In this document: piece by piece, positions 28,202 to 53,084 of the stretch
How positions within the stretch are numbered: position 1 is the stretch's first letter
Layout: each line of letters begins with the position of its first letter
Source of the DNA: Candidatus Micrarchaeota archaeon
GTDB lineage: Archaea > Micrarchaeota > Micrarchaeia > Anstonellales > Bilamarchaeaceae
DNA length: 64,000 nt
Direction of reading: 5' to 3'
NCBI GenBank assembly: GCA_023129075.1
Contig: JAGMCT010000001.1
Coordinates: 2,099-66,098 of the forward strand
The notes under the pieces: generated by a model
Databases searched by the model: none
Seen by the model: the letters and a program-made list of their open reading frames with translations, nothing else
Told to the model about the DNA's origin: nothing
Position numbers and translations under genes: made by a program

Positions 28202-28584
28202 TTCTTCTCCTCAGGACCCTTGGGAATCAGGGAATCAAGGGGTTGGGAACCCTGCTTGACAACCTTTGCGTTAACCTGAGTAATATCAGATGAATAAATC
28301 ATTCCCCTGAGAACTTTTCTTTTTCTCTGGCCCTTTCTTTGAGGGTGAAAACCTATTCCCCCTTTGAGAAGTGCCTTGATTTTCCTGCTGCCTGTGACCC
28401 CTGCCCTCATTGGAAAACCGCTGGAATCACTGCCTCCTGTAAGGAGAAAGGTATAATCAGGCAGACCAAGGGAAGCGCCGTCTATTTCATCGCCGGCCTT
28501 CTTTCCAATGATGAATGCTGCCTTCGTATCATCAAGTTCTATTTGATATGTTTTTCCATTTTTGTTTCCGATAACAAGTTTCAA
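28198..28584 (-). CDS. rps6e: 30S ribosomal protein S6e
   Basis: MKLVIGNKNGKTYQIELD..., GGSDSSGFPMR motif; 4-bp overlap with eif2g. Confidence 0.93.
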   Translation of the reverse strand: MKLVIGNKNGKTYQIELDDTKAAFIIGKKAGDEIDGASLGLPDYTFLLTGGSDSSGFPMRAGVTGSRKIKALLKGGIGFHPQRKGQRKRKVLRGMIYSSDITQVNAKVVKQGSQPLDSLIPKGPEEKK

Positions 28585-30323: not shown

Positions 30324-30341
30324 ATGTAACTATAGTTACAT
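30324..30341. repeat. 18-bp perfect palindrome ATGTAACTATAGTTACAT, copy 1
   Basis: Exact match. Lies between the divergent starts of the M50 protease (30288) and the CorA-like gene (30391). Confidence 0.95.
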
Positions 30342-30390
30342 TGCCAGGAAAAGGGAATATTTAAAAAGAACCTGTTCTGAAAAAAATAGT

Positions 30391-31224
30391 ATGATTGAGC
30401 GTTTTGATGTGTTTTCCAAATTTAAGGAAAGACTCCAAAAATTAGGTGTGAGCGGAGACCTCTCAATGCTCGAGGATTTGAAAATCATATTTTATGAGGT
30501 TTATGATAAGTATGTAATAATTAACATACCTGGTTTTAACGGAAAGGCAAACCATGTCCTTTACTTGTCAAAAGATGCAAACCTTACTTACCCTGCAAAA
30601 CTAAAAACCAAGGCAAGGTTGAAACTTTCAAAGATAAAAGGAAAAAAAGATATTGAAAGCACCCTTCTTGCATATGAGGTTTTCAACACAACACTTGAAA
30701 ATTATTACTCAAAATACAGATTGCTTGCTGAGAAAATAGAGGACCTTCATGATGATCCAAATATAGATATTGTGGAGGATGTTGCAAAGAGAATAAGGAC
30801 AACCTCTGATATTGTAGAGGACTTGCTTAAATTGTTCCTTGAAATTGAAGATGGTGAAATTGATTTCATAAACCCCAAAATCATTCCTTATGAGTTCGAC
30901 TTATTGGTTGCAAGAACCAATCATCTTGTAGACAGAATCAGGAACCTGAAAAAGGAGATAAATATATTGAGAACAAAATGTGAAATGGTTGAAACGAAAA
31001 CTCTTAGTAAAAGGATTGAACTGTTAACAAAGGTGATGGCAGTCCTGACAATAGTGGGTGTGATTATCTCCGTGCCGAACACCCTCGCAACTGTTTTTGG
31101 TGTGAAGAGTATTGCGGATTTATTTACCATAGAGAATATGTTTTGGATAATGGTTTGGGGGACCATTGTTTCGGTGGTGGCATCCTTAATCTATATGAAA
31201 ATGTATCTTAAAAAGGTGTTTTGA
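30391..31224 (+). CDS. CorA-like membrane protein lacking the GMN motif
   Basis: Cytoplasmic helical domain plus two C-terminal TM helices. VFGVKS occupies the position of the CorA YGMNF motif. Confidence 0.7.
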   Translation: MIERFDVFSKFKERLQKLGVSGDLSMLEDLKIIFYEVYDKYVIINIPGFNGKANHVLYLSKDANLTYPAKLKTKARLKLSKIKGKKDIESTLLAYEVFNTTLENYYSKYRLLAEKIEDLHDDPNIDIVEDVAKRIRTTSDIVEDLLKLFLEIEDGEIDFINPKIIPYEFDLLVARTNHLVDRIRNLKKEINILRTKCEMVETKTLSKRIELLTKVMAVLTIVGVIISVPNTLATVFGVKSIADLFTIENMFWIMVWGTIVSVVASLIYMKMYLKKVF

Positions 31225-31508
31225 TGGAAAGGGTTATCCTTTTTCCATGCGCAACAATCAAATCTATTGAATTAAGAGCGAGAGCTGCGGTGGATATGAA
31301 AAAGATTGATAAATGGATTGAAAAATATGCTGAAGAGATACTTAAAAATGAACTCTTTTTATCTTTTTTATATAAGGACAAGGCGTACACCCTGTTCTTC
31401 AAACCCATGAAGATAACCTTGAAGGATGTTGGAAAAGAAGAAGGAGAAAGGCTTATTAATGAAATATACGATATATTTGTGAAGGGGAGAATTTTGTATG
31501 AAAATTGA
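31221..31508 (+). CDS. Hypothetical protein
   Basis: 95-aa ORF, 4-bp overlap upstream and 11-bp overlap downstream. Confidence 0.55.
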   Translation: MMERVILFPCATIKSIELRARAAVDMKKIDKWIEKYAEEILKNELFLSFLYKDKAYTLFFKPMKITLKDVGKEEGERLINEIYDIFVKGRILYEN

Positions 31509-32175
31509 TTTCCATGTGCATACCAATGCATCTGTAGATTCTTCAATAGATGTGAGAGACCTGCTTATGAAGGCAAAAAAGGTTGGGATAATCCCAGCCA
31601 TAACAAATCATAATAAACTTGTTTTTCCAAAGAGAACCTTTCCATACATACCTGGAGAAGAGATAATGACTGAAGACGGAGAGGTTATTGGTTTGTTTTT
31701 GAACGAGGAGATAAAATCCAAACTTTCATTAGGAGAAACTCTTGACAAGATAAGGGAACAGGGTGCACTTTCAGTTGCTCCGCATCCCTTTTCTCCTTTA
31801 AGGCATGGGATTGGAATGCACTCTAAGGGAGTAGATATAATTGAGGTATTTAATGGAAGACAGCATCCGGATACAGATGAACTGGCTGAGAGGTTTGCAA
31901 AGGAATGGAAAAAACCCATAGTTGGCGGTTCTGATGCACATTTCCTTTTTGAGTTCGGCCGTTGTTATACTGAAATCCCGGACATGGAACTTGAACCAAA
32001 AAAGATACTGCGGGCTTTGAAAAAACCAAAAATACATAGATATAAAACTAATTTTGCAAGATTGCAGGCTGCCAAGCTTGCGTTTAAAATGAAACAGGTG
32101 AGCAGGGGGCAGAATCCATTTTATCCTGCCAGCCAGACAAAACAAAAGATATTTAAAAAAAGAGCAAGGAAATAA
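31498..32175 (+). CDS. PHP-domain metal-dependent phosphoesterase
   Basis: IDFHVHTNASVDS, SVAPHPF, GGSDAHF motifs. Confidence 0.85.
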   Translation: MKIDFHVHTNASVDSSIDVRDLLMKAKKVGIIPAITNHNKLVFPKRTFPYIPGEEIMTEDGEVIGLFLNEEIKSKLSLGETLDKIREQGALSVAPHPFSPLRHGIGMHSKGVDIIEVFNGRQHPDTDELAERFAKEWKKPIVGGSDAHFLFEFGRCYTEIPDMELEPKKILRALKKPKIHRYKTNFARLQAAKLAFKMKQVSRGQNPFYPASQTKQKIFKKRARK

Positions 32176-32179
32176 ACCT

Positions 32180-35100
32180 ATGAAAAAAATTTTTCTTATT
32201 ATGCTTGTTTTGAGTTTGGTTAGTGCTGTTTCAGAAAATTATGAAAGGCCCTGGGAAAATCCTTATTGGATGAACGGCAATCCGTATGTAAAAGAGACAT
32301 GGGGGTATGTGGTATCGGATTACGAAACGCTCACGCCTTTATTAGAAAAAATAAATTTTGATGAACTGGAAGAAAAGGGAGTGTGTGTTGCGCAGGCAGA
32401 AAGGGAGATAGATGATGTTTTATTGAAAAGGGAGAAGTGCGAGGAGTTTCATTCCATCGAACGGCTTGGACAGGAGAGTTTCACCATTGCAACAATTGGT
32501 TTGGTTGGGGGAATAATACCTACTGCTTTTGTAACGTTATGGATCAGTGGAGAAAGACTAAACCTCACCCTTGAATGTGTGGAGTATTGGGGGGAATGGA
32601 AAGAAGCTGCAGATGCTCAAATTGAGATTGTTGAAACGGAAGCGCGGGAATACAATAATGTATATGAAAAAAGGGAAATTGCAAAAAAAAGTCTTGAGAA
32701 AAGCGGGGCATGCCAGCAATCCTTCATTCTTTATGAAGAAGAAGTGTGTATGTACGAATGGATAGATATTGAATGCAATGGAAGCGGAATGAATGAATAT
32801 GCTCCGGATTTCAGTTGGATTGAAGAGTGTGTTCTTGAAATGAACGAAGGAAAAGAAAGGATGGAACAACAAGCATATGAAATGGAAGAACGCTTGGAAG
32901 CATTGGAACAATTCTACTACGAAAAAAGATTTGAAGCTGAGCAAAAAAAAGAGCAGACCAAAAACAATCTGTTGGAACTTGAAGAAGAAAAATTACAGAA
33001 AATAACAAGACAGGTCATCCTTGAAGGGGAATTTATAGATTTCGGGGATATAAAAACAACATATGAACAATTGGTGAAGATGAAAAACAGCGGAGATTAT
33101 CTTCTTGAAGATGGAAAAAATAGATATTCATATGGAGGCTCCTTTTATTTGAAGGAAGGAATTGAATACACTGAATCAGCAATACAACTCTATAATAGCA
33201 TAAATGAAGGAAAAGAGGGGTTGCTGGACAACGCAGAGGTTGTTGTTGAGATTATAAGGGAGGAAGCACGCCAGAAAATCCAGGAGGTTGAAGATGACGG
33301 GGGAATTGTTGAAGAAGCAAATGAAAGATATGAAAAAGCGGTGCAGGAATTTGAAGCAGGGGAGGTATCTGAAGAACTTGGAAATAGTTTTGTCCATTAT
33401 ATAAATGCATTTTTTTATGCTGAGGAAGCGCTGGAAATCAATAAAAATAAGGTGGATTTGGAGAAAATAGAAGCAGGCATAAAAGAGATTGAAGATTTGA
33501 TAAGCAGAGCTGAAGCAGATGAAATAAATATTTACATAGAAAAACAACAGCTGGAGAGTATAAAGAATTCAAAGGATGTTTATGGGTTGGGAAAACTCAG
33601 AGGAATAAAAAGTAGTATTGAAGAAAAAGCGCTTGTAAAATACGGGCGCCTGCAAACCAAACGACAGGAACTGATTGGTTGGATTGAGGCCGGCGGGGCA
33701 GATTTTGAGAAATATAGGATAGAGATAAGAAGTGTTGAAGGAGTTTGTGGTGGGGAAAATGAGCTTGACCTAATCTGCGCAATAGGCAATCTAAAAGAGA
33801 TAAGTATAACTTACCTTGAAGTGGAGCAGGATTTGAAAGAGAAGAAAGGGGAGATTATTGAAAACGGACTTATTGTAAAATCAGAGGAATATATCGGGGT
33901 TGTTGAACTGGATGAAAAAGGGGATTTGTTCTTGGAGGTAATAATAGACAATCCTTTCAAGCTTAGCGCAGAAAATGTGGTTGTGGAAATTATTGGGGTT
34001 GAAGGTTATGATGAAAATGATATTATGGGGGGGAGTGAACAGGTTAATGGTGTTGTTAGTGTAAAAGGAAATCTTAAGATTTATCTTAAAGAAATTAAAG
34101 AAAATGAACATTTGTTATTGCGATTTGAAAAAGAAGAGGTTGTTTGCTATGTTGAAGAGGAAGAGAGTTATGGAACTGGAGAAGGTTATGGAATTGCAAG
34201 AATTTATAGGGAAATAGATTTGGTATGTACACGCGATGCTTCTGGTCTTGTGCTGCCAGAAGGGTGGAACAATTGGGAATTAAACGGAAAAAAAGGAACG
34301 GGCAATATAATAAAAAGGACAATAAGAACGGGGGACCACGAACTAAAAATAGAGTTTTTGATTGAGGATGCCTACAACATAACTAAAAAAAATTATTTCA
34401 CAAACACACTTGGTTTTACAACAACTGTAGAATGTGATGTAGAAATAAAAAGCAGCTACTCTTTGGATACTGTGGTAATTTTTCTTAGTGGTGTTGATGA
34501 AAATGCAGAAAACATACGGGTTTTTGCGTATACTGGAGAAACTGTTAGGAATAAGGACCTCCTAGCTGGGGGCATCTTAACGTTCATGGTGAGAGATGTA
34601 GAGGGTGTTGTTTTAGTTAGGGTAAAATATGATATAAAGAATATAAGTAATAAAGTTGAGGAGAAATTAGATGAAATAGCTGTGTTTGTAGAACAGAACA
34701 ATATTACTGGAAAGGAAAGTGAAATTGAAGAAATAAATGAATTAGTTAAAGTAGGGGAATATGATGAAGCTTATGTAAAAGCCAATGAAGTTTACGATGA
34801 TGTGCTCAAGGAGATAAAAGAAAGAGAAAAGTATGAACGGATGTGCAAACGGGAGATGAATCAGATAAAAGAGGAAGTATTGGAACTTGAAAGGTGTGTT
34901 GGGAATATTATAGAATATGGATTGGAAGACGAAACATCTTTGGAAATAAACGCAAGGAAAAATTATTTGGATGGATTGATTGAAACGATGGTTTGTTCGG
35001 TAAATCCGGGAGCAACATATCTGGAGCTAAAGGATGTAGATACTAATTGGAATACAAAAAAGGCGAAATCAGCTGGCAAAGAATTGAAAAAAGAATATAA

Positions 35101-35851
35101 TGAAGCCAAAGATTTATGGTTAGGGAAAGGAGGTAATGAAACAATAAGAACAAAACTCAACAAAGTAAATGGTTATTTAATTGAGTTATCTGCCACAACA
35201 GACCTGTATTACTGGGTAGAAGCAAGAAACCTGCTGAATTCTGTGAATAAGATGTTGAGTACAACGCCAAGCAAAAACAATATTGAAGAAGAGTATGGGG
35301 AAGAATTGAGTACGGCAAAGAACAATAAGGTTGAATATATGGAAGAATATAATGAAGCAAAAGGGACGGATTTTGAAAAACTTTTTAGCCTCAGTTCCAA
35401 CGAGATAAAAGTAAGGATAGATGAGGCTGATGACGAAGCAAGCGCAGGAAATTTGGATGAACTTAAGGAACTAAATGGTATTATGGAGGGTGAGATTGAT
35501 TTAATCCGAAAAGAGGCCGGAAAAAAATATGAAAGTTTGGAAGAACGGATTGGAGAAGTGAGAAATGAGATAAAAAATGAATATATAGAAGAGGCAACAA
35601 AATACCTCGCAAATGCCAAGGATTATTATGAGAAAGAAAAGTATGTCAAAAGTCTTAAGGAAACTTCTATGGGATATGAAAAATTGAATGTTGGTTTTAA
35701 GGAAAGAGAAAAAGGAATGGAGGGGATAATAGTTTTAGTGCTGACTGGATTGGTTATTGTGGGTGGAATAGTCCTCTATGTTTTGAATAAGAAAGAAAAG
35801 AAAGGAGGAAAAAAACAACTGAAAAAATTAAAGAAAGGAAGTGATATCTAA
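32180..35851 (+). CDS. Giant (1223 aa) secreted, glutamate/lysine-rich coiled-coil surface protein with C-terminal TM anchor
   Basis: Signal peptide MKKIFLIMLVLSLVSAVS; C-terminal GIIVLVLTGLVIVGGIVLYVL followed by a basic tail; scattered Cys pairs. Confidence 0.85.
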   Translation: MKKIFLIMLVLSLVSAVSENYERPWENPYWMNGNPYVKETWGYVVSDYETLTPLLEKINFDELEEKGVCVAQAEREIDDVLLKREKCEEFHSIERLGQESFTIATIGLVGGIIPTAFVTLWISGERLNLTLECVEYWGEWKEAADAQIEIVETEAREYNNVYEKREIAKKSLEKSGACQQSFILYEEEVCMYEWIDIECNGSGMNEYAPDFSWIEECVLEMNEGKERMEQQAYEMEERLEALEQFYYEKRFEAEQKKEQTKNNLLELEEEKLQKITRQVILEGEFIDFGDIKTTYEQLVKMKNSGDYLLEDGKNRYSYGGSFYLKEGIEYTESAIQLYNSINEGKEGLLDNAEVVVEIIREEARQKIQEVEDDGGIVEEANERYEKAVQEFEAGEVSEELGNSFVHYINAFFYAEEALEINKNKVDLEKIEAGIKEIEDLISRAEADEINIYIEKQQLESIKNSKDVYGLGKLRGIKSSIEEKALVKYGRLQTKRQELIGWIEAGGADFEKYRIEIRSVEGVCGGENELDLICAIGNLKEISITYLEVEQDLKEKKGEIIENGLIVKSEEYIGVVELDEKGDLFLEVIIDNPFKLSAENVVVEIIGVEGYDENDIMGGSEQVNGVVSVKGNLKIYLKEIKENEHLLLRFEKEEVVCYVEEEESYGTGEGYGIARIYREIDLVCTRDASGLVLPEGWNNWELNGKKGTGNIIKRTIRTGDHELKIEFLIEDAYNITKKNYFTNTLGFTTTVECDVEIKSSYSLDTVVIFLSGVDENAENIRVFAYTGETVRNKDLLAGGILTFMVRDVEGVVLVRVKYDIKNISNKVEEKLDEIAVFVEQNNITGKESEIEEINELVKVGEYDEAYVKANEVYDDVLKEIKEREKYERMCKREMNQIKEEVLELERCVGNIIEYGLEDETSLEINARKNYLDGLIETMVCSVNPGATYLELKDVDTNWNTKKAKSAGKELKKEYNEAKDLWLGKGGNETIRTKLNKVNGYLIELSATTDLYYWVEARNLLNSVNKMLSTTPSKNNIEEEYGEELSTAKNNKVEYMEEYNEAKGTDFEKLFSLSSNEIKVRIDEADDEASAGNLDELKELNGIMEGEIDLIRKEAGKKYESLEERIGEVRNEIKNEYIEEATKYLANAKDYYEKEKYVKSLKETSMGYEKLNVGFKEREKGMEGIIVLVLTGLVIVGGIVLYVLNKKEKKGGKKQLKKLKKGSDI

Positions 35852-37309
35852 CTGCCCTGTCTTTTTTTGTGTTTTTGTTTTTTTTGGTTTGTTTTCTTTG
35901 GATTTTGAAGAGAATTTTTTTAAGATAGAATGCATTTTTTTCTCTTTCCTCTGCGATGCCCAGTAATAATATTCGTCGCGGGTTCCTTTTGTAATGAGGA
36001 TGCACACCTCTCCCTTATTCAACCTTCCAGTTCTCCCCCTTCTTTGAATCGTGCGTATTTCGCTGGGGATTGGTTCATAAAAAATAACAATATCCACGGC
36101 AGGGATATCAAGACCCTCTTCTCCAATTGAACTGGAGACAAGGATATCAAATTTGTTTTCTCTGAAATCTTGAATTGTTTGTTCCTGTTGTTTTTTTGTA
36201 AATTTATTTCTTTTTCCCATAAAAGGCTTGGCCGAGAAACCCAAGTCTAAAAGTTTGGAGACTATGTGCTCAATTTGAGTACGGTACTGAACAAAAACAA
36301 TAGCTTTCTTTCCTTTGTGTTTCAAAAGAAGAGAAAGGAGTTTTGGAATTTTTGGGTGTTCTGGTTTAGTTAAGAGGATTTTTTTTATTGTAAACATTTC
36401 TGGTTTGGAAAGGAGGGTCCTTGAAGATTTTGAGGGGTTTTTTTCTAGTTTTTTGATATATTGAGCTGTGGTGTAGGGTCCTTGTGTTTCTATAAGTTCC
36501 TGGAGGTGGAGGGAATGAAGAATAATGGAATAATGCATAATGGCTGTGTATTTCATAGGGTGTTTTATGGAAAGAATTCTTTTTCTATACTCCATAAAAC
36601 GTCCTTTTGAAATCAGCGGGAGATTAAATGACATTTTTTTTAGGGTTTGGTTGTGTTGTTTTATGATGGAAGAAAGAGCTAATTTTATCTCAATGAGCTC
36701 TTTTGTTGGTTGGACAAAAATCCATTCTAATTTTGTTTTTTGCACGTGGGGGGAAACGTCTTTATCTTGTTTGGTTCTCATTTCAATGTTATCTATCCTT
36801 AGGTTTGCTAAGATCTCATCTATCTTCTTTTTCGAACCGCCGGGAGAGGCAGTAAGACCGACAAGAAGAGTCTTCTCTGGGGCCTTTTTTGCTATGTTTG
36901 TGTAAGCATAGTTTCCAACCGCTCTGTGCGCCTCATCAAAAACAATTAAACTGAAATTCTCTAGAGATAGAAGTTTCTTCCTTAAATCGTTTCTTATGGT
37001 TTGGGGGGTGGCTATTATTATGTTAGAGGAATATTTATCTTTTCTTTTTTTTGGGCTTATTTCACCAGTAACAAGAATTGATTCTTCTTCATCCAGGTTA
37101 TCTAATTGGGTGAGAATTGTGTTTTGGTGTTGTTTTGCAAGAGGTTTGGTGGGAGTTAGGAAAAGAACTTGGCCTTCTTCTTTTAATTTGTTTATCAATA
37201 GAAGGGCGATTAGTGTTTTACCTAAACCTGTGGGGAGAACCACCAAACTGTTTCCTTTCTTTAAAATAGAATCATATATATTTTGTTGGTATTCTCTTGG
37301 TTTGTGCAT
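35828..37309 (-). CDS. Hef/FANCM/Mph1-like SF2 helicase (helicase domain only) with C-terminal PIP box
   Basis: PTGLGKT, DEAH, TASPG, QRRGRTGR motifs. The C-terminus QLDITSFL fits Qxx(I/L)xxF(F/L). ATG at 37309. Confidence 0.88.
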   Translation of the reverse strand: MHKPREYQQNIYDSILKKGNSLVVLPTGLGKTLIALLLINKLKEEGQVLFLTPTKPLAKQHQNTILTQLDNLDEEESILVTGEISPKKRKDKYSSNIIIATPQTIRNDLRKKLLSLENFSLIVFDEAHRAVGNYAYTNIAKKAPEKTLLVGLTASPGGSKKKIDEILANLRIDNIEMRTKQDKDVSPHVQKTKLEWIFVQPTKELIEIKLALSSIIKQHNQTLKKMSFNLPLISKGRFMEYRKRILSIKHPMKYTAIMHYSIILHSLHLQELIETQGPYTTAQYIKKLEKNPSKSSRTLLSKPEMFTIKKILLTKPEHPKIPKLLSLLLKHKGKKAIVFVQYRTQIEHIVSKLLDLGFSAKPFMGKRNKFTKKQQEQTIQDFRENKFDILVSSSIGEEGLDIPAVDIVIFYEPIPSEIRTIQRRGRTGRLNKGEVCILITKGTRDEYYYWASQRKEKKMHSILKKFSSKSKENKPKKTKTQKKTGQLDITSFL

Positions 37310-37402
37310 AAATAAAAAATAAAACAAAGAGAATTAAAAAATAGGGGGGGTGGACTTCCACTAATCTAAAAATAATAATAAAACAAAAGATATAAAAGAT
37401 AT

Positions 37403-37420
37403 ATGTAACTATAGTTACAT
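37403..37420. repeat. 18-bp perfect palindrome, copy 2
   Basis: Exact match. Ends 1 nt before the ATG at 37422 and lies ~90 nt upstream of the divergent Hef start. Confidence 0.95.
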
Positions 37421-37421
37421 T

Positions 37422-37655
37422 ATGATTGTATATTTTTATGATTTAAAAGGAAAAGACCTAAGAGAATATAATAGAGTAAAAAGAAGATTTTACTATAATT
37501 TAGCGAGGCTTTCTGGTGTTGGGATGGTGTGGCGAAGCAAATCAGTATTTAGTATAGATGATAAATATGAGAGATATATTGATTCTTTTCTAAAAGAATA
37601 TATTCCTTTTTTAGAGGTTTATAAAGTACACACAGAAAAGATTTGTTCTTTATAA
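37422..37655 (+). CDS. Small hypothetical protein with Cas2-like (ferredoxin-fold) sequence pattern
   Basis: MIVYFYDL...REYNRVKRRFYYNLARL...SKSVF follows the beta-alpha-beta pattern of the Cas2/VapD N-terminus. No cas1 or CRISPR array in the window. Confidence 0.4.
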   Translation: MIVYFYDLKGKDLREYNRVKRRFYYNLARLSGVGMVWRSKSVFSIDDKYERYIDSFLKEYIPFLEVYKVHTEKICSL

Positions 37656-37680
37656 TTTATTAGTGGAAGTAAAGGGGCCC

Positions 37681-39225: not shown

Positions 39226-39263
39226 ATTCTCAATTCCCGTTAAAAGGGTTTAAATTTATATAT

Positions 39264-39281
39264 ATGTAACTATAGTTACAT
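39264..39281. repeat. 18-bp perfect palindrome, copy 3
   Basis: Exact match. Lies 7 nt past the purF stop and 38 nt upstream of the pheT start. Confidence 0.95.
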
Positions 39282-39288
39282 TGACCCC

Positions 39289-42074: not shown

Positions 42075-42078
42075 TTTT

Positions 42079-42855
42079 TCACCCTAACTCTTCAAGATAT
42101 CTCTTTGCATTTTCAAACAACTCCAACCCATCCCCCTGCTTAGGATATTTGTGGGTCCAGAAAGGGTTATTGGTTGGATGATTGTAAGCCTCAGGATGCG
42201 GCATCATCCCAAAAATCTGCCCGCTCATATCGCTTACAGCTGCAATATTGAGAGCCGAACCGTTTGGATTGTGGGGGTATCCCCCAAGTTCTCCCCTTTC
42301 ATTTACATACTGCATGGTATGAAGATTCTTTCCTATTAAATGGTCCATAATCTCTTTGGATGAAGGCACAAATCTCCCTTCCCCATGTCTCACAGGAAGC
42401 CAAAGATGTTCTATATTTTTCGTGAACACTGAAGGCGAAGAGCTGTTTATCCTTAACCTCACCCACCGGTCTTCAAAAAGCCCGTTTGCATTTGTGATTA
42501 AGGTAACTCTCTGTTCAAAATCAGGTTCAGGCAGAAGCCCCATTTTTACAAGCGCTTGAAAACCATTGCATACGCCCAATATCAGTTTGCCTTCACTTAT
42601 GTAAGTGAGAATTTCCCTTCCGATTCCATACCTTATCTTGTTTGCAAGCACCTTTCCTGATGCAATATCATCACCAAATGAAAAACCACCCGGGAAGAAA
42701 AGAAGATTATAGTCATGAATTATTCCCGGGTTGTCTAACACTTGGTTTATATGTTTCCCATCTGCAACCCCGCCAACTTTCTCTACAGCATATTTTGATT
42801 CGTAGTCGCAATTTATTCCATATCCCTGAAGTATAAGAGCCTTCAACCCCGCCAT
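42079..42855 (-). CDS. purQ: Phosphoribosylformylglycinamidine synthase, glutaminase subunit
   Basis: GVCNGFQ nucleophile elbow, MMPHPE His-Glu motif. Confidence 0.9.
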   Translation of the reverse strand: MAGLKALILQGYGINCDYESKYAVEKVGGVADGKHINQVLDNPGIIHDYNLLFFPGGFSFGDDIASGKVLANKIRYGIGREILTYISEGKLILGVCNGFQALVKMGLLPEPDFEQRVTLITNANGLFEDRWVRLRINSSSPSVFTKNIEHLWLPVRHGEGRFVPSSKEIMDHLIGKNLHTMQYVNERGELGGYPHNPNGSALNIAAVSDMSGQIFGMMPHPEAYNHPTNNPFWTHKYPKQGDGLELFENAKRYLEELG

Positions 42856-45761
42856 TCAATCCCCCCTCTCCAAAGATTTCTCAATTCTTTCGCATCCTCA
42901 TTTATGAGAATCTTTTCTTCTAATCTGAGTATAAATCTTTTATCCCCCCTAACTCTTCCTATTCTACTCAAATCAGCACCATTCATTATTTTTTCAAAAC
43001 TCTGCACATCTCTTTCCTTTACTGAAACCACAAATCTCCCAGGAGTTTCTGAGAAGATCATCGCTGTTTCAGAACACCCATCATTTTTCAATAGTTCCAG
43101 GTTTACATCAACACCATAACCACCCGAAAATGAGCTTTCAGCCAAAGCCACGGCTAAACCTCCATCAGATACATCATGGGCCGACCTTACCAGTCCGAGC
43201 TTCATTGCATCAACCAGTTTTTTGTAGTTTCTGATATTTTTTTCTATTTCAACATAAGGGATGTTTTTTCTTATGATTCCTTGTAAAACAAGGTATTCGG
43301 CCCCCCCCATTTCAGGCCTTGTATTTCCTATAACATACAAAATGTCACCGGATTCTTTTATTTCAATACTTACTGCTTTTTTTATGTTCTCAATCTTTCC
43401 GACTACAGTAATAAGTAATGTTGGTTTTATTGAATATTTTTTCTTCCCGTCGAAATAATCATTTTTCATACTATCTTTTCCTGAAATAAGAGGAATCTGA
43501 TATGATGTTGCAATCTTATAGATGCCTTCCGCAGCTTTCACAAGATTTGCAAGTTTTATGCCTCCATCTTCATTACCTTTTCCCTTTATTGGATTTGGCC
43601 ACGAGAAATTATCAAGGGCAGCCATGTGCTCAAAGTCCCCCCCGCTTGCGATTACGTTTCGTACTGCTTCATCAAACGCAAGCATGGCCATCTTCCCGCC
43701 ATCTTCGATGTATTTTGGGCATATTCCATGACCCACAACAACACCCCATTCCTTTTCCAGAATAGGTCTGAATACACCAGCATCGCTCGGTCCCGCAAGC
43801 CCCATGAGCGGTTTTATCACGCTTCCCCCCTGCACTTCATGGTCGTATCTTCTTACCACCCATTCTTTGGATGCTATGTTCGGACTGGAAAGCAGTTTCT
43901 TTAACCCTTCTCCAAAACCTATTTCATCTGCCCATAATTCATCCTGTTCTTTTTCAGGCGGCTTCCATTCCGCCGTTAGTTTCATCTGTGGCACTCCTTC
44001 GTGCAGAAATTCCATATCAAGATAGGCAGCGGTCTTATTGTTATAAAGTATATGAAACATCCCGCTGTTTGTGAACAGGCCTACAATTGTCAGTTCAACA
44101 TCGTGTTTTTTTGCTATTTCCTTTAATTTTTCCATACTTTCAGGAGGGACAGCAAGGCTCATTCTTTCCTGTGATTCTGAAACCAGAATTTCCCAGGGGT
44201 CAAGACCAGGGTATTTAAGAGGGCACCTCTCAAGATAAATCTCACAACCCCCGCTCATCTGCGCCATCTCACCTATGCTTGAGGAGAGTCCGCCTGCGCC
44301 ATTATCCGTAATTGCATTATAAAGCCCAGAATCCCTCGCTTCAAGCACAAAATCTATAACCTTCTTCTGTGTTATGGGGTCGCCTATCTGCACAACAGAT
44401 GAACTTATATTCCCTGTTATCTGCTGTGAGGAAAACGTAGCGCCGTGTATGCCGTCTTTTCCTATTTTTCCCCCAACCATAATTGCATAATCACCATCGT
44501 TTATCGTTTTTACGGATGTTCTTTTTCCGTTTATCTCTGCAGGAAGCAGTCCTATGGTTCCTGCGTAAACCAAAGGCCGTGTGTTATAGCATTCATCAAA
44601 GGTTATTGAACCGTTCACTGTTGGAATTCCTACCTTGTTTCCCCCATCCTGTATTCCTTTTATTACTCCTTTCATTATTCTCCTTGTAGGCAGAACTTTA
44701 GGAGGAACATCAGTATCAAGGATTCCAAAACAAAGCATATTGACATTTGCAACAGGTTTCGCCCCCAGCCCGGTGCCCAAAACATCCCTGTTCACTCCGA
44801 GGATTCCGGTAAGCGCCCCCCCATAAGGGTCAAGGGCAGACGGTGCGTTGTGAGTCTCGACCTTCACAGCTATATTGTGTTCGTGGTCCATTTTTATTAT
44901 TCCGCCGTTGTCATGAAAAACAGAAACAACATAAGATTTTTTTATGTCTTCTGTTGCTTTTTTTATGTAGCTTTTGAATATTGAATTTACCTTCTTTTTC
45001 TCTCCGTTTTCTTCATACTCTATGACTGCGTTGAATATCTTGTGCTTGCAGTGCTCGCTCCACGACTGAGCTAATGCTTCAAGTTCCACATCAGTTATTT
45101 CCTTTCCAAGACCAGCCCGTTTTCTTCTTCTTCTTACTGCTGGTTTTTTCAGGTATTCCCTTATTTTCTCCATCTCTTCTACATTAAGCGCAAGCAACCT
45201 TTGTTTACTTAATTCTCTTAGTTTTTCAGGCTGTTCGGGCAGTTCTATTTTTTCAACAGTTGGTTCGCTTTTTATCTTAACCTTCGGGATGTAGGGTATG
45301 AAACTAGTATCTCCTGATTTGAATATCCTCCAGCTTTCTATGAGTTTGTTTGCAAGAACCATTCCGGCTATTTTTTCCAGTTCCTGATGATTGAGGTTTC
45401 CTTCAAGAGCGTAAACCTTTGAGAAATGGACTTCACATTCTTTCCCCAGAACATCCCGTATTCCCTCCCTTGCAGTTTTTCCTACGTTGTCGGTGACTCC
45501 GGGGAGAAATCCTATCTCTATCCTATGGAGTTCCTCTCTTATGGGTTTGTCAATTGAATATTTCTCAACAACCCTGTCAGCAAAAAGTTCATTTGAAAGT
45601 TTTTCCAGTTCCTCATTTGTAAGTTCTTCATCTATATTATATACGTTTATTGAGTAGATTTCAGAGATATTAATTCCTATCTCATTTATCTTTTTCTTTA
45701 TCTCTTCTGTTTCCACTGGATTCTTTAAAGAGTCCAGGACACATACTTCTATTCTTTTCAT
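42843..45761 (-). CDS. purL: Phosphoribosylformylglycinamidine synthase subunit PurL with two N-terminal PurS-like repeats
   Basis: WSEHCKHKIF PurL motif begins near residue ~230. The preceding ~185 aa form two ~85-aa units that end ADRVVEKYSI and ANKLIESWRI, like PurS C-termini. Confidence 0.9.
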   Translation of the reverse strand: MKRIEVCVLDSLKNPVETEEIKKKINEIGINISEIYSINVYNIDEELTNEELEKLSNELFADRVVEKYSIDKPIREELHRIEIGFLPGVTDNVGKTAREGIRDVLGKECEVHFSKVYALEGNLNHQELEKIAGMVLANKLIESWRIFKSGDTSFIPYIPKVKIKSEPTVEKIELPEQPEKLRELSKQRLLALNVEEMEKIREYLKKPAVRRRRKRAGLGKEITDVELEALAQSWSEHCKHKIFNAVIEYEENGEKKKVNSIFKSYIKKATEDIKKSYVVSVFHDNGGIIKMDHEHNIAVKVETHNAPSALDPYGGALTGILGVNRDVLGTGLGAKPVANVNMLCFGILDTDVPPKVLPTRRIMKGVIKGIQDGGNKVGIPTVNGSITFDECYNTRPLVYAGTIGLLPAEINGKRTSVKTINDGDYAIMVGGKIGKDGIHGATFSSQQITGNISSSVVQIGDPITQKKVIDFVLEARDSGLYNAITDNGAGGLSSSIGEMAQMSGGCEIYLERCPLKYPGLDPWEILVSESQERMSLAVPPESMEKLKEIAKKHDVELTIVGLFTNSGMFHILYNNKTAAYLDMEFLHEGVPQMKLTAEWKPPEKEQDELWADEIGFGEGLKKLLSSPNIASKEWVVRRYDHEVQGGSVIKPLMGLAGPSDAGVFRPILEKEWGVVVGHGICPKYIEDGGKMAMLAFDEAVRNVIASGGDFEHMAALDNFSWPNPIKGKGNEDGGIKLANLVKAAEGIYKIATSYQIPLISGKDSMKNDYFDGKKKYSIKPTLLITVVGKIENIKKAVSIEIKESGDILYVIGNTRPEMGGAEYLVLQGIIRKNIPYVEIEKNIRNYKKLVDAMKLGLVRSAHDVSDGGLAVALAESSFSGGYGVDVNLELLKNDGCSETAMIFSETPGRFVVSVKERDVQSFEKIMNGADLSRIGRVRGDKRFILRLEEKILINEDAKELRNLWRGGIEWRG

Positions 45762-45770
45762 ATCCTCCCC

Positions 45771-46202
45771 TTACAACCATCTTTTTAGAACAATATATGT
45801 TTTGGTATCTCTTATCCTGCCCAAACTTCTCATGATTCCTATCTTCTCATCTATATCTTCTAGATCCTCCCCCTCAATTACCACACATCCATCATATTCC
45901 CCGTAAATATCGTAAATCCGTTCTGCAATTCCGAGTTCCTTAATTGCCTTGAGTGCGAGTTTATCGCTCCCCTTTGACCTCATCATTACGATAGCTGCTC
46001 TTTTTCTAGTTGGCGTTTCTATAGTGAATCTCTTTATATCTCCCTTTCTGAGCAGCATTTCTATTCTTTTTCTTATCGCCCCTTCGCTTAGTCCAACTTC
46101 TGCCGCAATCTCGGTGTTTTTCATCCGGCTGTTTTCTTTAAGAAGGTCTATTATCCTTTTATTGGTTCTGTCAAGAGATGAGACCATATTTTCGGTTCTC
46201 AT
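45771..46202 (-). CDS. lrp: Lrp/AsnC family transcriptional regulator
   Basis: N-terminal HTH NKRIIDLLKENSRMKNTEIAAEVGLSEGAIRKRIEML plus a C-terminal RAM-like domain; stop is 9 nt before the purL start. Confidence 0.88.
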   Translation of the reverse strand: MRTENMVSSLDRTNKRIIDLLKENSRMKNTEIAAEVGLSEGAIRKRIEMLLRKGDIKRFTIETPTRKRAAIVMMRSKGSDKLALKAIKELGIAERIYDIYGEYDGCVVIEGEDLEDIDEKIGIMRSLGRIRDTKTYIVLKRWL

Positions 46203-46239
46203 ATAAGGTTTATATTTGTTTCTTTCGTTTTTCGTATAT

Positions 46240-46257
46240 ATGTAACTATAGTTACAT
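46240..46257. repeat. 18-bp perfect palindrome, copy 4
   Basis: Exact match. Lies 37 nt upstream of the lrp start and 14 nt past the ugd stop. Confidence 0.95.
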
Positions 46258-46271
46258 TCAATTTACTAATC

Positions 46272-47522
46272 CTACCAGCAAATCCCATAATAATTTCCAC
46301 TGGTTTTCTTGTTCAGCACCTTTCTTCCGTCAAAAACAGTTTTCCCTTCATAAAGTTTCTCGTCCTTGAATTCTTCCCATTCAGTCAGCAAAAATGCAAC
46401 CTCTGCTTTCCCAAGTGCATCTTCCTTGCTTTTGCAGTATTCAATCTCTCCTTTAATTACTTTCTTTGCATTCTCCATCGCCTTAGGGTCGTATGCATGC
46501 ACCGTTGCCCCAAGCTTCACAAGTTCTTCAACTATTCTTATTGCAGGCGCCTCCCGTATGTCATCACTGTCTGGTTTGAACGCCAGACCAAGCACAGCAA
46601 CATCCTTTCCATCAAGGCTCCCCAAAACCTTTTTTGCCATCTCAACTATCTTCAGAGGCTGGCCCTCATTTATTGTTATTACAGACTCCAGTAGTTTTGG
46701 TTCAACCCCATTTTCCTTTCCAGTATGAATCAATGATTTGACATCCTTTGGAAAACAACTTCCCCCAAATCCTATTCCTGCATTCAAAAAATAAGGAGAG
46801 AGTCTTCTGTCCATTCCAACCCCTTTCATTACCTCATAAACATCCATTCCAAGCTTCCTGCATAAGTTCCCCACCTCATTTGCAAAAGAAATCTTCGTTG
46901 CAAGCAGGGAATTGGAAGCATACTTTATCATCTCTGCGGTTTTCAAATCCGTCTCCAGGATAGGGCAGTCAAAGGAGGAATATAATTCCTTTATCTTTTC
47001 TATTGACTCCTTACTGTTTCCTCCAATCACAATCCTATCCGGGTTAATAAAGTCCTCAACCGCTTTCCCTTCTCTTAAAAACTCAGGGTTCATTCCCATC
47101 CCAAATCGTTCTCCTATTATTTCATGCACTTTCTCACTCGTTCCGGGCGGGACAGTGCTTTTTACCACCACAACGTGCCAGTCCTTTTCTTTGAGTGCAT
47201 TTCTTATTCCCTCAGCAGCACTTTCAACATACGCCAGGTTAGTGCTTCCATCTTCTTTTGAAGGAGTTCCCACACAAATAAATGTTAGTTCAGAATCCTT
47301 GACCGCACAATCCAAATCCAGCGTAGCCCGTATTCTTTTTGCCTCAAGATTCCTTTTCAGCATCTCCTCTAATTCAGCCTCATAGATAGGACTGATTCCG
47401 TTGTTTATTTTTTCCACTTTCTCAGGCAGGACATCTACACATGTTACATCATGCCCTAATTCAGCAAAACACACTCCGCTTACCAACCCAACATAACCAG
47501 TACCGATAATAGAAACCTTCAT
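46272..47522 (-). CDS. UDP-glucose/GDP-mannose dehydrogenase family protein
   Basis: MKVSIIGTGYVGLV Rossmann start, GFGGSCFPKD catalytic Cys motif. Confidence 0.9.
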   Translation of the reverse strand: MKVSIIGTGYVGLVSGVCFAELGHDVTCVDVLPEKVEKINNGISPIYEAELEEMLKRNLEAKRIRATLDLDCAVKDSELTFICVGTPSKEDGSTNLAYVESAAEGIRNALKEKDWHVVVVKSTVPPGTSEKVHEIIGERFGMGMNPEFLREGKAVEDFINPDRIVIGGNSKESIEKIKELYSSFDCPILETDLKTAEMIKYASNSLLATKISFANEVGNLCRKLGMDVYEVMKGVGMDRRLSPYFLNAGIGFGGSCFPKDVKSLIHTGKENGVEPKLLESVITINEGQPLKIVEMAKKVLGSLDGKDVAVLGLAFKPDSDDIREAPAIRIVEELVKLGATVHAYDPKAMENAKKVIKGEIEYCKSKEDALGKAEVAFLLTEWEEFKDEKLYEGKTVFDGRKVLNKKTSGNYYGICW

Positions 47523-47627
47523 ACTTTCTTTTCGTTCCGAAACATAAATAAAAAGATAGCAAAGGCCAGAGAAATTCAAATTGTGTTAAAACTTATATTT
47601 ATAAACATTACCACACATAATAATATT

Positions 47628-48089
47628 ATGAAAAACAAATCCCTGAGAAAGATACAGAAAGCAGCAAGAATAGGAATAATTGCACTTAATATCTTCACCT
47701 GTTCTATCCCATTAATATCCCATACCCAGGAAACCAAACAAGTAAAACAAATGAAGGCAGTGGATTACGAAAACAAGGCCGATGCATTAAAAATTATAGA
47801 TAAAAAAGCAGCAGCAAAACTCTACAAGAAAGCTGCGATGGAATACGAAAAGGATTTTGATTTCACTCTGGATTCAGCTTCCTGCTATAAGAAAGCAGCA
47901 GATTTAACAGATGATAAGGAAGAAAAAAAGGACCTGCTTAGAAACTCCATTTTTTTATATGAAAAGGTAATAATCATATTTGAAAAACTATTGGGAACTG
48001 AAGGGATTGTTGAGAATATCGAGGTTATGAGGGATGAGGCAAAGAAAGAGCTTGAAAAGTTAAATGATAAAGAAGAACCTGCTAAATAA
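47628..48089 (+). CDS. Hypothetical protein with N-terminal signal/anchor
   Basis: ATG at 47628; IGIIALNIFTCSIPLI hydrophobic segment, then a helical K/E-rich region. Confidence 0.5.
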   Translation: MKNKSLRKIQKAARIGIIALNIFTCSIPLISHTQETKQVKQMKAVDYENKADALKIIDKKAAAKLYKKAAMEYEKDFDFTLDSASCYKKAADLTDDKEEKKDLLRNSIFLYEKVIIIFEKLLGTEGIVENIEVMRDEAKKELEKLNDKEEPAK

Positions 48090-48143
48090 AACATCATCGC
48101 TCTTGTTCCTTGTTGAAAACCCATAAAGGATAGAATGAGATAC

Positions 48144-48959
48144 CTATCTGCTTTCTGAGCACACATAAGTTATAAATTCTGCTTTTGGGTCGTATCCTTT
48201 CCTATAATCCGAATAAATCTCAATTTCATTGAAACCAACTTCCTCCAATAAACCGATGATTTCTCCTTTTTTGAATGGATATACAACTAGATGAGCAACC
48301 TTTCCGTTTTCTTTATGCTGGTATTCCATTACTACTAAGTTCTCTTTGATTAGAATAGGACGCCCTTCAACCAAATTTCCGCAATAAACAATCTCTTTCT
48401 CGTGTTTGAATATCTTTTCAAACATCAACCCATAGTTCCTTTCATCTATGATTAATCTTCCTTTTTCTTTGAGAATCCTCCTAAAGGAAGATAATGCTCT
48501 CAGCTGGTCCTTTCTTTTGAAAAGATATCCAAGGGAATTTCCAAGGCAAAGAACCGAATCAAACCGATTATCCAGTTGTGGTGGAATATCTCTCCAGTCA
48601 TAATTATGTATATCTTTTAGTTCAACCCCGAATCTAGTTGCCTCTGTTTTTGCTACCCTTACTAATTTCTGGTCTATTTCATTAGAAATTATATTGTATA
48701 CTCCTGCAAGCTTCAATCCTATTGTTGCTGCTCCTGAGCCTAAACAAGCGTCAAATACATCTGCGGTCCTTTCGATGTGTTTCAGAAGAAAGGGAACCTC
48801 TTTTTTCATTCTTTTTTCCAATCCTACAAAATCAGGCCACATCTCTGCAAGGACCTTCCCGTCGAGGTTCAGTCTCAGGTGCCTTATCCTCTTCAATCCT
48901 TTCTCTCCTATCTGCCCACGCAGATAAGCCAAGTGTTTATGTTTTTTGTGTCTTGTCAT
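48144..48959 (-). CDS. SAM-dependent methyltransferase (glycine/sarcosine N-methyltransferase-like layout)
   Basis: VFDACLGSGAATIGL motif I, SNEID, FDSVLCLGNSLGYL. Confidence 0.75.
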   Translation of the reverse strand: MTRHKKHKHLAYLRGQIGEKGLKRIRHLRLNLDGKVLAEMWPDFVGLEKRMKKEVPFLLKHIERTADVFDACLGSGAATIGLKLAGVYNIISNEIDQKLVRVAKTEATRFGVELKDIHNYDWRDIPPQLDNRFDSVLCLGNSLGYLFKRKDQLRALSSFRRILKEKGRLIIDERNYGLMFEKIFKHEKEIVYCGNLVEGRPILIKENLVVMEYQHKENGKVAHLVVYPFKKGEIIGLLEEVGFNEIEIYSDYRKGYDPKAEFITYVCSESR

Positions 48960-49054
48960 GTTTATTTATGTGTCTTTGCTTATATTTTAATTTTCCTGAG
49001 CCACTTTTTGAAAAATCCTTAACTTTATAAACCATTTCTTTCATATAGTTCAAT

Positions 49055-50014
49055 ATGGTCTATAAATTAGATAATAAGTCCAAAAAACTCTTATATGAGC
49101 TTGATTTGAACGCACGACAGCCCTCTTCCTCTCTTGCAAAAAAACTCAGGGTTCCCAAAAGCCTCATCACCTATAAGATTTCAAAACTAAAGAAAGAAGG
49201 GATAATCAAGAATTTTTATACTTTAATAGATACGTATAAGATGGGCTACATCAGTGTTAGGATTTATATCACATTTCAATATGCAAGTGAAGAGAAAAGA
49301 AAGGAGATTGCTAATTATTTCATTAGAAATGAAAATACCTGGTGGGTAAGTTCTACTGACGGCTGGTTTGATTTGGCCGTGATTTTCTGGATAAAAAACA
49401 TGGCAGACTTCACAACTTTCTGGAATGACATTCTGGAGAGATACAGGAACTATTTTGAAAACTATTTATTTACTATTTACCTCAGGTTGGAGAATTTTAA
49501 TTATGTTTATTTTCTGGATGAAAAGAATCTAGAGAGAAAATCCTTTTCTATAGGCTGTGCTGAGCAGGTAGAAGTAGATAAAACAGATATGAAGATACTA
49601 AAAGTTATTTCAAATAATGCCAGGGCGCCGCTTGTAGAGATAGCAAAGAGGTGCGGTATCTCCTTCCCTACCGCAAAACAAAGGCTGAAAAAACTTGAAA
49701 AGTCAGGGGTTATTGTTGGTTACAGGGTTGACCTGAATTTTAGGAAACTTGGCTATGAGCAATATAAAGTGGATATCTTTCTTAAGGATTATAAAAGAAA
49801 GGAAGAAATAGCAAATTTTGCAAGACGCTCCAGAAATCTCGTTTATATAGATTATTCTGCGGGTATGTCAGATGTAGAAGTTGAATACCATTTCAAAGAC
49901 AGAAATGAGTTCTACAAAGAGATGAGCAGTCTGTTGAAGAAGTTTCCTGAGGATATAAAAAGATACAAATATGTCATTTTCCCTGAAATTTACAAGATAG
50001 ATTTTGTTCCTTAA
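49055..50014 (+). CDS. Tandem-duplicated Lrp/AsnC-type regulator (two HTH + effector-like modules)
   Basis: KSKKLLYELDLNARQPSSSLAKKLRVPKSLITYKISKLKKEGII and DMKILKVISNNARAPLVEIAKRCGISFPTAKQRLKKLEKSGVI. Confidence 0.8.
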   Translation: MVYKLDNKSKKLLYELDLNARQPSSSLAKKLRVPKSLITYKISKLKKEGIIKNFYTLIDTYKMGYISVRIYITFQYASEEKRKEIANYFIRNENTWWVSSTDGWFDLAVIFWIKNMADFTTFWNDILERYRNYFENYLFTIYLRLENFNYVYFLDEKNLERKSFSIGCAEQVEVDKTDMKILKVISNNARAPLVEIAKRCGISFPTAKQRLKKLEKSGVIVGYRVDLNFRKLGYEQYKVDIFLKDYKRKEEIANFARRSRNLVYIDYSAGMSDVEVEYHFKDRNEFYKEMSSLLKKFPEDIKRYKYVIFPEIYKIDFVP

Positions 50015-50019
50015 CTAGT

Positions 50020-50037
50020 ATGTAACTATAGTTACAT
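50020..50037. repeat. 18-bp perfect palindrome, copy 5
   Basis: Exact match. Lies between convergent 3' ends, 5 nt after the 49055-50014 stop and directly abutting the fen stop codon. Confidence 0.95.
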
Positions 50038-53011: not shown

Positions 53012-53084
53012 GCCACGGTAGCTCAGTTGGGAGAGCACTCCGCTGAAGACGGAGGGGTCGTCGGTTCAAATCCGGCTCGTGGCA
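53012..53084 (+). tRNA. tRNA-Phe (GAA)
   Basis: Hand-folded cloverleaf: acceptor GCCACGG/TCGTGGC (one G:U), anticodon arm CTCCG-CTGAAGA-CGGAG, T arm GTCGG-TTCAAAT-CCGGC. No intron and no encoded CCA. Confidence 0.93.

Follow-up and report, generated by a model that had tools for sequence, protein, structure and literature searches.

The window analysed here is a 64-kb stretch of the genome of a Candidatus Micrarchaeota archaeon (assembly GCA_023129075.1, contig JAGMCT010000001.1, positions 2,099 to 66,098), and it contains five exact copies of the 18-bp perfect palindrome ATGTAACTATAGTTACAT (PAL). The more important result is the context of the second of these copies (37403-37420), which forms the core of a phylum-wide element: it lies between two inverted repeats that resemble archaeal origin recognition boxes (ORBs) and adjoins a small gene whose product is predicted to adopt a Cas2-like fold. 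This locus coincides with a switch in strand composition and is a replication landmark, probably the point at which replication forks converge. We propose with moderate confidence that PAL is a duplex-DNA site for a conserved homodimeric Micrarchaeota protein, the small Cas2-fold protein being the best candidate, and that this lineage has put the site to use as an operator or insulator. What each part of the element does is what we infer from its sequence and setting.

Exact copies of PAL begin at positions 30324, 37403, 39264, 46240, and 50020 of the window, and no further match with up to three mismatches was found in the 64 kb. The number expected by chance is 0.04, and none of 100 shuffled sequences gave five. 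All five copies are intergenic in a window with a coding fraction of 0.916 (P about 4e-6), and all lie inside 20 kb around the landmark, with none in the other 44 kb. The bases that precede PAL are cAT, tAT, tAT, tAT, and aGT for copies 1 to 5, and a T follows it in every copy; these flanks give all five copies one common orientation, and copies 2 to 4 share the short flanks atat...t. An earlier, sequence-only reading of the window had reported the five identical intergenic copies, their flanking bases, the genes around them, and the lack of a perfect copy outside 30-50 kb. The exact scan and a check of open reading frames (ORFs) against Pfam bear out each of these statements. The "degenerate relatives" that it listed at 56990-57038 have more than three mismatches to PAL, a similarity no higher than chance would give, and it did not see copy 2 as the centre of a conserved replication landmark.

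A scan for the exact 18-mer with one genome per species returned at least 80 loci. About 55 of the 80 that were listed belong to metagenome-assembled genomes (MAGs) of Micrarchaeota or other DPANN archaea, representing many different species, and in the Micrarchaeota MAGs the 16-bp core of the palindrome recurs at one syntenic locus, between the two ORB-like inverted repeats. A homologue of the 77-amino-acid ORF that follows copy 2 in the window is found directly downstream of PAL, and pointing away from it, in about 40 of these roughly 55 loci; at the syntenic locus, PAL lies just upstream of a gene of about 78 codons in about 80% of genomes. The gap between the palindrome and this small gene is exactly 1 nt in 12 loci, including that of the window, and 3-149 nt in the others. 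Occurrence in related MAGs and conservation at orthologous intergenic sites were among the checks that the sequence-only reading had proposed for its palindrome: the core is kept at one syntenic locus across the Micrarchaeota, and PAL is retained upstream of the small gene in about 40 genomes, at the purF-pheT sites of L101 and L192, and at the purL site of L101.

Since this first sample had been selected on the exact 18-mer, further loci were fetched by means of the small protein, a route that is unbiased with respect to PAL. Two of them (L081 and L100) carry the exact palindrome, three (L083, L084, and L086) are changed at its outermost bases only, and two (L088 and L099) have one internal change each, such single-sided variants being rare. 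The remaining pair, L101 and L102, has ATGTAACCATGGTTACA(T/A), a symmetric double change. A metagenome scan for this variant, ATGTAACCATGGTTACAT, in which the centre CTATAG is replaced by CCATGG, added five more loci with the small gene (L148, L153, L177, L192, and L209). The variant is common to all PAL copies of a genome, apart from one end base in L101, and variation between genomes consists mostly of such symmetric double changes, so that the dyad symmetry is kept. Conservation extends over 6 bp of each arm, and the outer 5 bp, beyond position −1, carry no information. Because the CCATGG variant is symmetric and is shared by the copies within a genome, it argues for recognition of duplex DNA by a homodimer.

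Several classes of match fall outside this setting. Intragenic exact matches (L028, L048, L053, and L054) all encode xVTIVTx in frame, and the one in Trm1 lies in a region that aligns without gaps to solved homologues, as a chance coding match would; insertion of PAL within genes was therefore rejected. Ten matches on viral contigs have neither arms nor small gene and are attributed to chance. Bacterial 18-mers, from Chloroflexi, Paenibacillus, and others, likewise lack both and were treated as chance or unrelated, with the exception of L019. Eight of these are Chloroflexi genomes (L002, L005, L006, L014, L027, L058, L065, and L071), and in Paenibacillus gyeongsangnamensis the 18-mer occurs twice on one contig (L012 and L041), each time within a longer AT palindrome; the Chloroflexi and Paenibacillus sites are probably unrelated operators or chance. 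L019, a contig of 1.7 kb labelled Candidatus Berkelbacteria, has PAL together with an ORB-like arm and encodes a small-protein homologue; it was probably misbinned and belongs to the Micrarchaeota. A literature search for the PAL sequence gave no paper.

The order of elements at the conserved locus is an ORB-like arm, an AT-rich spacer, PAL, usually the small gene, and a second ORB-like arm. In the window the left arm occupies 37344-37365 on the − strand (reading GGGGGGGTGGACTTCCACTAAT on the + strand, with the 12-nt core ACTTCCACTAAT), and the right arm (ATTAGTGGAAGTAAAGGGGCCC) occupies 37659-37680 on the + strand, between the stop codons of the small gene and pheT. In the 64 kb the core occurs in exact form just twice, at 37354-37365 and, inverted, at 37659-37670. 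The AT-rich spacer (37366-37402), between the left arm and PAL, contains the TATA box of the small gene, and the 150 nt from 37350 to 37499 that include it have a G+C content of 20%, the lowest of the region. Two gene arrangements recur around the unit: in more than 20 genomes it lies between convergent genes, with acs (acetyl-CoA synthetase) on one side and pheT followed by purF on the other, whereas a second synteny places it after the gene for TFE-alpha and before PRC and lysS. The adjacency of pheT and purF is ancestral.

Alignment of 71 arms from the different loci gives the consensus AATAGTGGAAGTATGGGGTCTC. Published counterparts are the archaeal ORB consensus CTTCCAGTGGAAACGAAAGGGGT, ORB1 of 'Ca. 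M. intestinalis' (ATTACAGTGGAAATGA-AGGGGT), the mini-ORB of Pyrococcus (TTCCAGTGGAACT), and the common motif of Ori-Finder, TCCA[CG]T[TG]GAAA[TC][GA]AAGGGGT, with which the right arm of the window agrees at 15 of 20 positions. The resemblance of the arms (AATAGTGGAAGTATGGGGTC) to the ORB consensus extends to their layout, as they are inverted with the G-strings pointing outward. It is incomplete, as the arms lack the TTCC half of the ORB dyad and have a linker between core and G-string that is 1-2 nt shorter. Two other explanations of the arms were rejected. An RNA processing stem or circular RNA does not fit the variable positions of left and right arms, which show no covariation within a locus, nor did Rfam give a match; a mobile cassette, such as a miniature inverted-repeat transposable element or small transposon, does not fit the finding of one arm pair per window or locus and of the unit at syntenic positions.

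Four further observations concern ORB-like and PAL-like sequences. An exact canonical mini-ORB core, TCCAGTGGAAAC, lies at 45709-45722 (−), about 500 nt away from PAL copy 4 and within the 5' portion of purL(S); it is a single coding-region site with no G-string, and about 0.01 such matches are expected in 64 kb. A motif in the Ori-Finder 2 table (PMC4164010) has the same layout as PAL (ATGTAAC-TATA-GTTACAT), and dyads of this kind may occur more widely at the replication landmarks of archaea. Some genomes have additional copies of PAL within a few hundred nucleotides of the master copy: L177 has PAL at 9636 and 9796, one of them just outside an ORB-like arm, and L048 has copies with the last base changed at 6452, 6607, and 6980, upstream of the small gene.

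GC skew at four-fold degenerate sites, measured on the + strand, changes sign between 37640 and 37690, which is to say at the small gene and the right arm. From 8.8 to 37.66 kb it is +0.51 for genes on the + strand and +0.54 for genes on the − strand; from 37.66 to 53 kb the corresponding values are −0.26 and −0.32, and beyond 53 kb they are −0.27 and −0.24. The switch is the same for genes of either strand, and because it coincides with the locus regardless of gene orientation, the PAL locus is a replication landmark. Other Micrarchaeota loci behave similarly when the small gene is set on the + strand: among those with enough data, the skew to the left exceeds that to the right in 23 of 25, and 15 of them have a positive skew to the left and a negative one to the right.

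The landmark is probably a terminus. This is favoured because of the polarity of the skew, the orientation of genes, and the lack of orc1/cdc6. The G-rich strands run towards the locus, a polarity opposite to that of the Pyrococcus abyssi oriC, which lies at the peak of MK-disparity. Genes point towards the locus in 28 of 39 cases in the window and 150 of 264 in the other loci. No orc1/cdc6 or whiP gene was found in the window, and no orc1/cdc6 gene was found within 4-10 kb of the locus in the flanks of about 50 loci. The search for orc1/cdc6 covered the window and these flanks, and the preference for a terminus over an origin therefore comes from composition and the orientation of genes.

An origin is unlikely by comparison, and the main argument for it is the ORB-like arms. 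In archaeal oriC regions, inverted ORB elements surround an AT-rich unwinding element (Robinson/Bell), and the Micrarchaeota locus likewise has inverted arms, a stretch of 20% G+C between them, and one such pair in 64 kb. It differs from oriC in having no initiator gene nearby in about 50 genomes, in its terminus-type skew polarity and gene orientation, in the incomplete dyad and shorter spacing of the arms described above, and in the coding gene between them. No paper on DPANN or Micrarchaeota origins turned up in the literature search.

The surroundings of the landmark include other genes of interest. A gene for the large subunit of RFC or for PolB lies 3-5 kb away in some lineages, and, more generally, replication and repair genes (for a KaiC/RadB-like ATPase, FEN1, RFC large subunit, and PolB) are found at distances of 3-16 kb in different lineages, at 53101-53787 (+) and 50038-51078 (−) in the window, 4771-5967 in L083, 3643-4896 in L099, and 4646-7027 in L102; they weakly recall the replication islands beside origins. 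Genes for S6e and an aIF2-gamma-like GTPase (27014-28584, −) and for tRNA-Phe (53012-53084, +) point away from the landmark, contrary to the majority orientation, which is a small point for an origin. A HerA/FtsK-like ATPase (DUF87, AAA_10, and a weak FtsK_SpoIIIE match) is encoded 10-25 kb from the landmark in the window (12086-13519, +) and in L101 (19764-20234), and could be relevant if the landmark is a terminus. In several genomes a protein of about 1,200 amino acids without a Pfam domain adjoins the ResIII/DEAD helicase beside the landmark (32180-35851, +, in the window; 4654-8361 in L101; 6111-9581 in L192; also in L048, L066, and L036).

The small gene (37422-37655, +) encodes a 77-amino-acid basic protein of an uncharacterised family limited to Micrarchaeota and relatives. 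Homologues at PAL loci share only 30%-47% identity with the window protein. The family has no sequence match in Pfam, NCBIfam, or the Protein Data Bank (PDB) and is annotated as hypothetical in every source; among 1.84 billion proteins it comprises 81 representatives at 50% identity, nearly all of them stand-alone proteins of 75-90 amino acids, and its median isoelectric point is 9.75. An AlphaFold2 model with a predicted local distance difference test score of 94.5 has the topology beta-alpha-beta-beta-alpha-beta, and the top Foldseek matches in the PDB are Cas2 and VapD (template modelling scores of 0.6-0.7, E about 4e-3). The protein thus has a predicted Cas2-like ferredoxin fold, with neither a significant Cas2 profile match nor a CRISPR-cas neighbourhood: Pfam CRISPR_Cas2 matches one of 34 members (E = 0.065), the PADLOC Cas2 profiles give marginal values (E = 0.014-0.1), hhalign against Cas2 returns a probability of 3%, and there are no cas genes among the scanned neighbours of the small gene, where CRISPR arrays were not searched for directly.

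Cas2 and VapD share with the small protein not only this topology and a length of about 80 amino acids but also the Y-D pair that ends strand 1, conserved in about 90% of the family. The basic helix KRRFYY, in contrast, is peculiar to the small-protein family. Residues K20, R21, F23, Y24, Y25, K40, and S41 are invariant in an alignment of 65 members, and Y4, D7, N17, E50, D54, F56, F57, and K68 are at least 90% conserved. Helix 1 holds conserved basic and aromatic residues, of which N17, K20, R21, Y24, and Y25 would lie on its exposed face, judging from helical periodicity.

Where the gap is 1 nt, as in 12 loci, PAL is preceded at a distance of 4-6 nt by a TATA box and runs almost straight into the ATG; in the window this box is at 37390-37397, 5 nt upstream of copy 2, and the helicase gene lies on the other side. 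Loci with longer gaps have a Shine-Dalgarno-like GGAGG or GGTG before the start of the small gene. To judge from this arrangement, PAL probably lies downstream of the TATA box and ahead of the point where transcription of the small gene begins, the classical position for an archaeal repressor, and because of this position a bound protein would be expected to silence the gene.

The extra copies in the window also lie at gene boundaries. Copy 1 (30324-30341) falls between the divergent genes for an M50 protease (ATG 35 nt to the left) and a CorA-like protein (ATG 49 nt to the right), with AT-rich TATA-like boxes between the palindrome and each of the two start codons. Copy 3 (39264-39281) begins 7 nt after the purF stop codon and has the pheT ATG 38 nt downstream. 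Copy 4 (46240-46257) begins 14 nt after the stop of ugd, 37 nt before the start of lrp, the first gene of a run that continues with purL(S), purQ, an M17 peptidase gene, and purF. Copy 5 (50020-50037) is flanked by the ends of two convergent genes, the stop codon of the tandem-HTH (helix-turn-helix)/Lrp gene being 5 nt away and that of fen directly adjacent (0 nt). Pfam supports the names of these genes, namely the M50 protease, CorA-like, ResIII/DEAD helicase, pheT, purF, M17 peptidase, purQ, purL(S), Lrp/AsnC regulator, ugd, tandem-HTH, fen, and MBF1-like genes. The only other contig that carries the same small protein, from a second sample, is 100% identical to the window and has the same PAL arrangement.

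Similar placements occur in relatives. Three copies within 20 kb of L101 lie upstream of purF-pheT, of the small gene, and of purL-purQ-hexapeptide-M17, and two copies in L192 lie upstream of purF-pheT and of the small gene. These two genomes have the same gene set as the window, with a different gene order and PAL centre, and extra copies are thus kept at equivalent promoters (those of purF-pheT and the purL operons) across the window, L101, and L192. The number of copies per sample is five in the window, three in L101, and two each in L192 and L177. Elsewhere, PAL lies between mbf1 and fen in L031 (just after fen in the window) and 25 nt before an Lhr-type helicase gene in L032.

These observations lead us to the following model, in which the functions are predictions. 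The ancestral, near-universal copy of PAL is the centre of a conserved element that marks a replication landmark, more probably a terminus than an origin, and a protein bound there would shut off the small gene. In its simplest form the small protein would itself bind PAL through its basic helix (N17, K20, R21, Y24, and Y25) and so regulate its own synthesis. In the window lineage further copies of the palindrome have arisen at a few intergenic sites close to the landmark, namely the heads of the purine operons, pheT, the M50/CorA pair, and the end of fen; a protein bound at these borders of transcription units would serve there as activator, repressor, or insulator. As candidate binder the small Cas2-fold protein stands first, on account of its linkage to PAL, its conserved basic helix, and the position of its gene. 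The placement and conservation of PAL, its linkage to the small gene and the arms, the skew switch, the concerted symmetric variant, and the recurrence at pur promoters are observed, and from them we infer protein binding, the binder's identity, the sign of any regulation, and the preference for a terminus.

The sequence-only reading had offered, among its suggestions, an operator for a dimeric transcription factor with the Lrp-type proteins as candidates. The operator is the suggestion that fits best, given the perfect dyad, its symmetric variation, and the like promoters in relatives. The attribution to Lrp fares badly: the phylum-wide site is at a locus without an Lrp gene, the purL site of L101 has no lrp beside it, and in other genomes the gene that travels with PAL is the homologue of the 77-amino-acid ORF and never an Lrp gene. 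Binding of PAL by the Lrp proteins thus seems unlikely.

A number of findings weigh against the model that we prefer. In about nine loci the ORB-PAL-ORB unit, of about 150 nt, has no small gene within about 4 kb, so that the binder could be some other protein or one whose gene lies elsewhere. Within the small protein, no residue covaries with the CTATAG/CCATGG change, and the known proteins with a Cas2 fold act as nucleases or as subunits of integrases rather than as sequence-specific regulators. Copy 5 departs from promoter placement, with no promoter between the two gene ends that flank it, and the next start may be as close to PAL as 1 nt or as far away as about 150 nt. Single copies of PAL in L081, L083, and L100 (20 kb sampled from each) mean that multiplication of the palindrome, and with it any "regulon", is lineage-specific. 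Nor does the model explain how an 18-bp site was copied exactly to new places.

Two types of known system are comparable to the proposed autoregulatory circuit. The first comprises small dimeric regulators whose own promoters contain a palindromic operator, for example the C-proteins of restriction-modification systems and the archaeal repressors that bind between TATA and start site. PAL resembles their operators in its position after the TATA box and ahead of the small gene's start, with few extra sites elsewhere; it differs in that the small protein is neither an HTH nor a ribbon-helix-helix protein and in that PAL is conserved throughout the phylum and tied to a replication landmark. The rtp gene of Bacillus subtilis is a small gene for a dimeric DNA-binding protein, the winged-helix protein RTP, that stands beside the inverted-repeat terminators IRI and IRII where forks meet, and its promoter is overlapped by a binding site. 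The Micrarchaeota gene also stands by inverted repeats, with its promoter overlapped by a candidate binding site, PAL. It differs from rtp in the Cas2-like fold of the predicted protein, in the presence of three cis elements (two ORB-like arms and PAL), and in that its terminus is a putative one, assigned from skew alone. By analogy with RTP or Tus, one could imagine, as a speculation that we think rather unlikely to hold, that the arm-PAL-arm unit is a site-specific replication terminus, in which a protein of the Orc1/Cdc6 type or of another kind would bind the two inverted ORB-like arms and make them polar barriers to forks, PAL would be the meeting point, and the Cas2-fold protein would serve as terminator or terminus-organising factor; the same factor would then tie the purine-supply genes and fen to the replication cycle in this lineage.

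The most serious rival to an operator is a dif site. PAL would then be the target of XerA, copy 2 the working dif at the terminus, and the extra copies sites left by Xer recombination at the borders of modules, as in integrative mobile elements exploiting Xer (IMEX) or pdif modules. PAL contains TAA-N6-TTA, the most conserved feature of archaeal dif sites, and the dif of Thermococcus kodakarensis lies between convergent genes (Cortez et al. 2010, PMC2958812; Yamaura et al. 2025, PMC11840125), just as copy 2 lies between convergent genes exactly at the skew inversion. The AT-rich flanks and flanking inverted repeats recall the dif sites of Thermococcales, and the candidate dif sites of Sulfolobales have similar arms (AGTTAAC...GTTAACT). 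Variants mostly alter the central 6 bp and agree within a genome, as an overlap region would; three other genomes, sampled over 20 kb, hold a single copy; and the five copies of the window, in one orientation by their flanks, delimit gene blocks around a locus where gene order differs among the window, L101, and L192. Yet only 6 bp of each arm are conserved, against the 11-bp arms of Xer sites (18-20 bp in all, against 28 bp), and a palindromic centre, whether CTATAG or CCATGG, removes the directionality needed for dimer resolution. The window, L101, L192, and L177 all have more than the one copy per chromosome of a dif site; five direct repeats in 20 kb would allow excision of essential pheT and pur genes, yet the arrangement is unchanged in the second sample; the ancestral pheT-purF adjacency means that copy 3 is not the scar of a foreign insertion; and no xerA gene is present among the window ORFs scanned. 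The recombination target suggested by the sequence-only reading therefore stands as far as the TAA-N6-TTA core and the position at the skew inversion are concerned and falls short in arm length, asymmetric spacer, and copy number, and we regard a dif site as doubtful. An architectural site of the matS or parS kind, or a roadblock that organises the landmark region by stalling SMC or forks, with placement at gene boundaries merely tolerated, seems to us slightly more doubtful. The clustering of five copies within 20 kb centred on the landmark, with none in the other 44 kb, speaks for it, as do the copy between convergent gene ends, the second copy of L177 just outside an ORB-like arm, and the known domain boundaries formed by roadblock proteins at dif regions in Thermococcus. 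However, matS and parS are multi-site systems, unlike the single copies in three other genomes (20 kb each), no ParA/ParB-type partner gene is found at the locus, and it is specifically ahead of pur operons that extra copies turn up again in relatives.

Two further explanations concern transcription itself. PAL could be a symmetric core promoter that directs transcription both ways from a TATA-like centre with arms like the transcription factor B recognition element, a proposal suggested by its TATA centre between A-rich arms, by the three window copies that lie 35-38 nt before a start codon, and by the loci with gaps of 21-23 nt, in which the centre of PAL is about 30 nt before the ATG. It is improbable: the commonest class of locus has the ATG 1 nt after PAL and a separate TATA box upstream, the CCATGG variant loses the TATA centre and is nevertheless kept at the same places, and copy 5 has no gene to drive. 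Least probable of all, and very unlikely in our view, is a self-spreading element like the repetitive extragenic palindromic (REP) sequences, acting as an RNA hairpin for termination or processing, which the sequence-only reading had also put forward. Although the copies are exact and intergenic, three of them directly after stop codons, and the flanks shared by copies 2 to 4 hint at copying, the predicted hairpin has a free energy of only −4.7 kcal/mol and no U-tract, PAL in its commonest arrangement lies upstream of the start of a leaderless gene, and the symmetric variant alters the bases of the would-be loop. The copy number is very low, all copies being perfect, with no REP-associated tyrosine transposase or other transposase among the neighbours; Rfam gives no match, viral contigs give chance matches only, and conservation throughout a phylum at one syntenic site is not what such an element would show.

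The arm-PAL-arm locus would be the first defined replication landmark for the Micrarchaeota and, through them, for DPANN archaea, organisms with tiny genomes that are uncultured or grown in co-culture, and it can be found by a plain sequence search for PAL between two ORB-like arms. A phylum-specific Cas2-fold protein that acts as a sequence-specific DNA-binding factor would, if confirmed, represent a new activity for this fold. We know of no sequence-specific termination system in archaea, and the landmark, were it a terminus, would provide this domain with its first candidate for programmed termination; if it is an origin, it would be one with no adjacent initiator gene, a reversed skew, and a gene inside. 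In the lineage of the window, nucleotide supply may be linked to the replication cycle, as the extra copies of PAL at the pur operons, pheT, and fen suggest.

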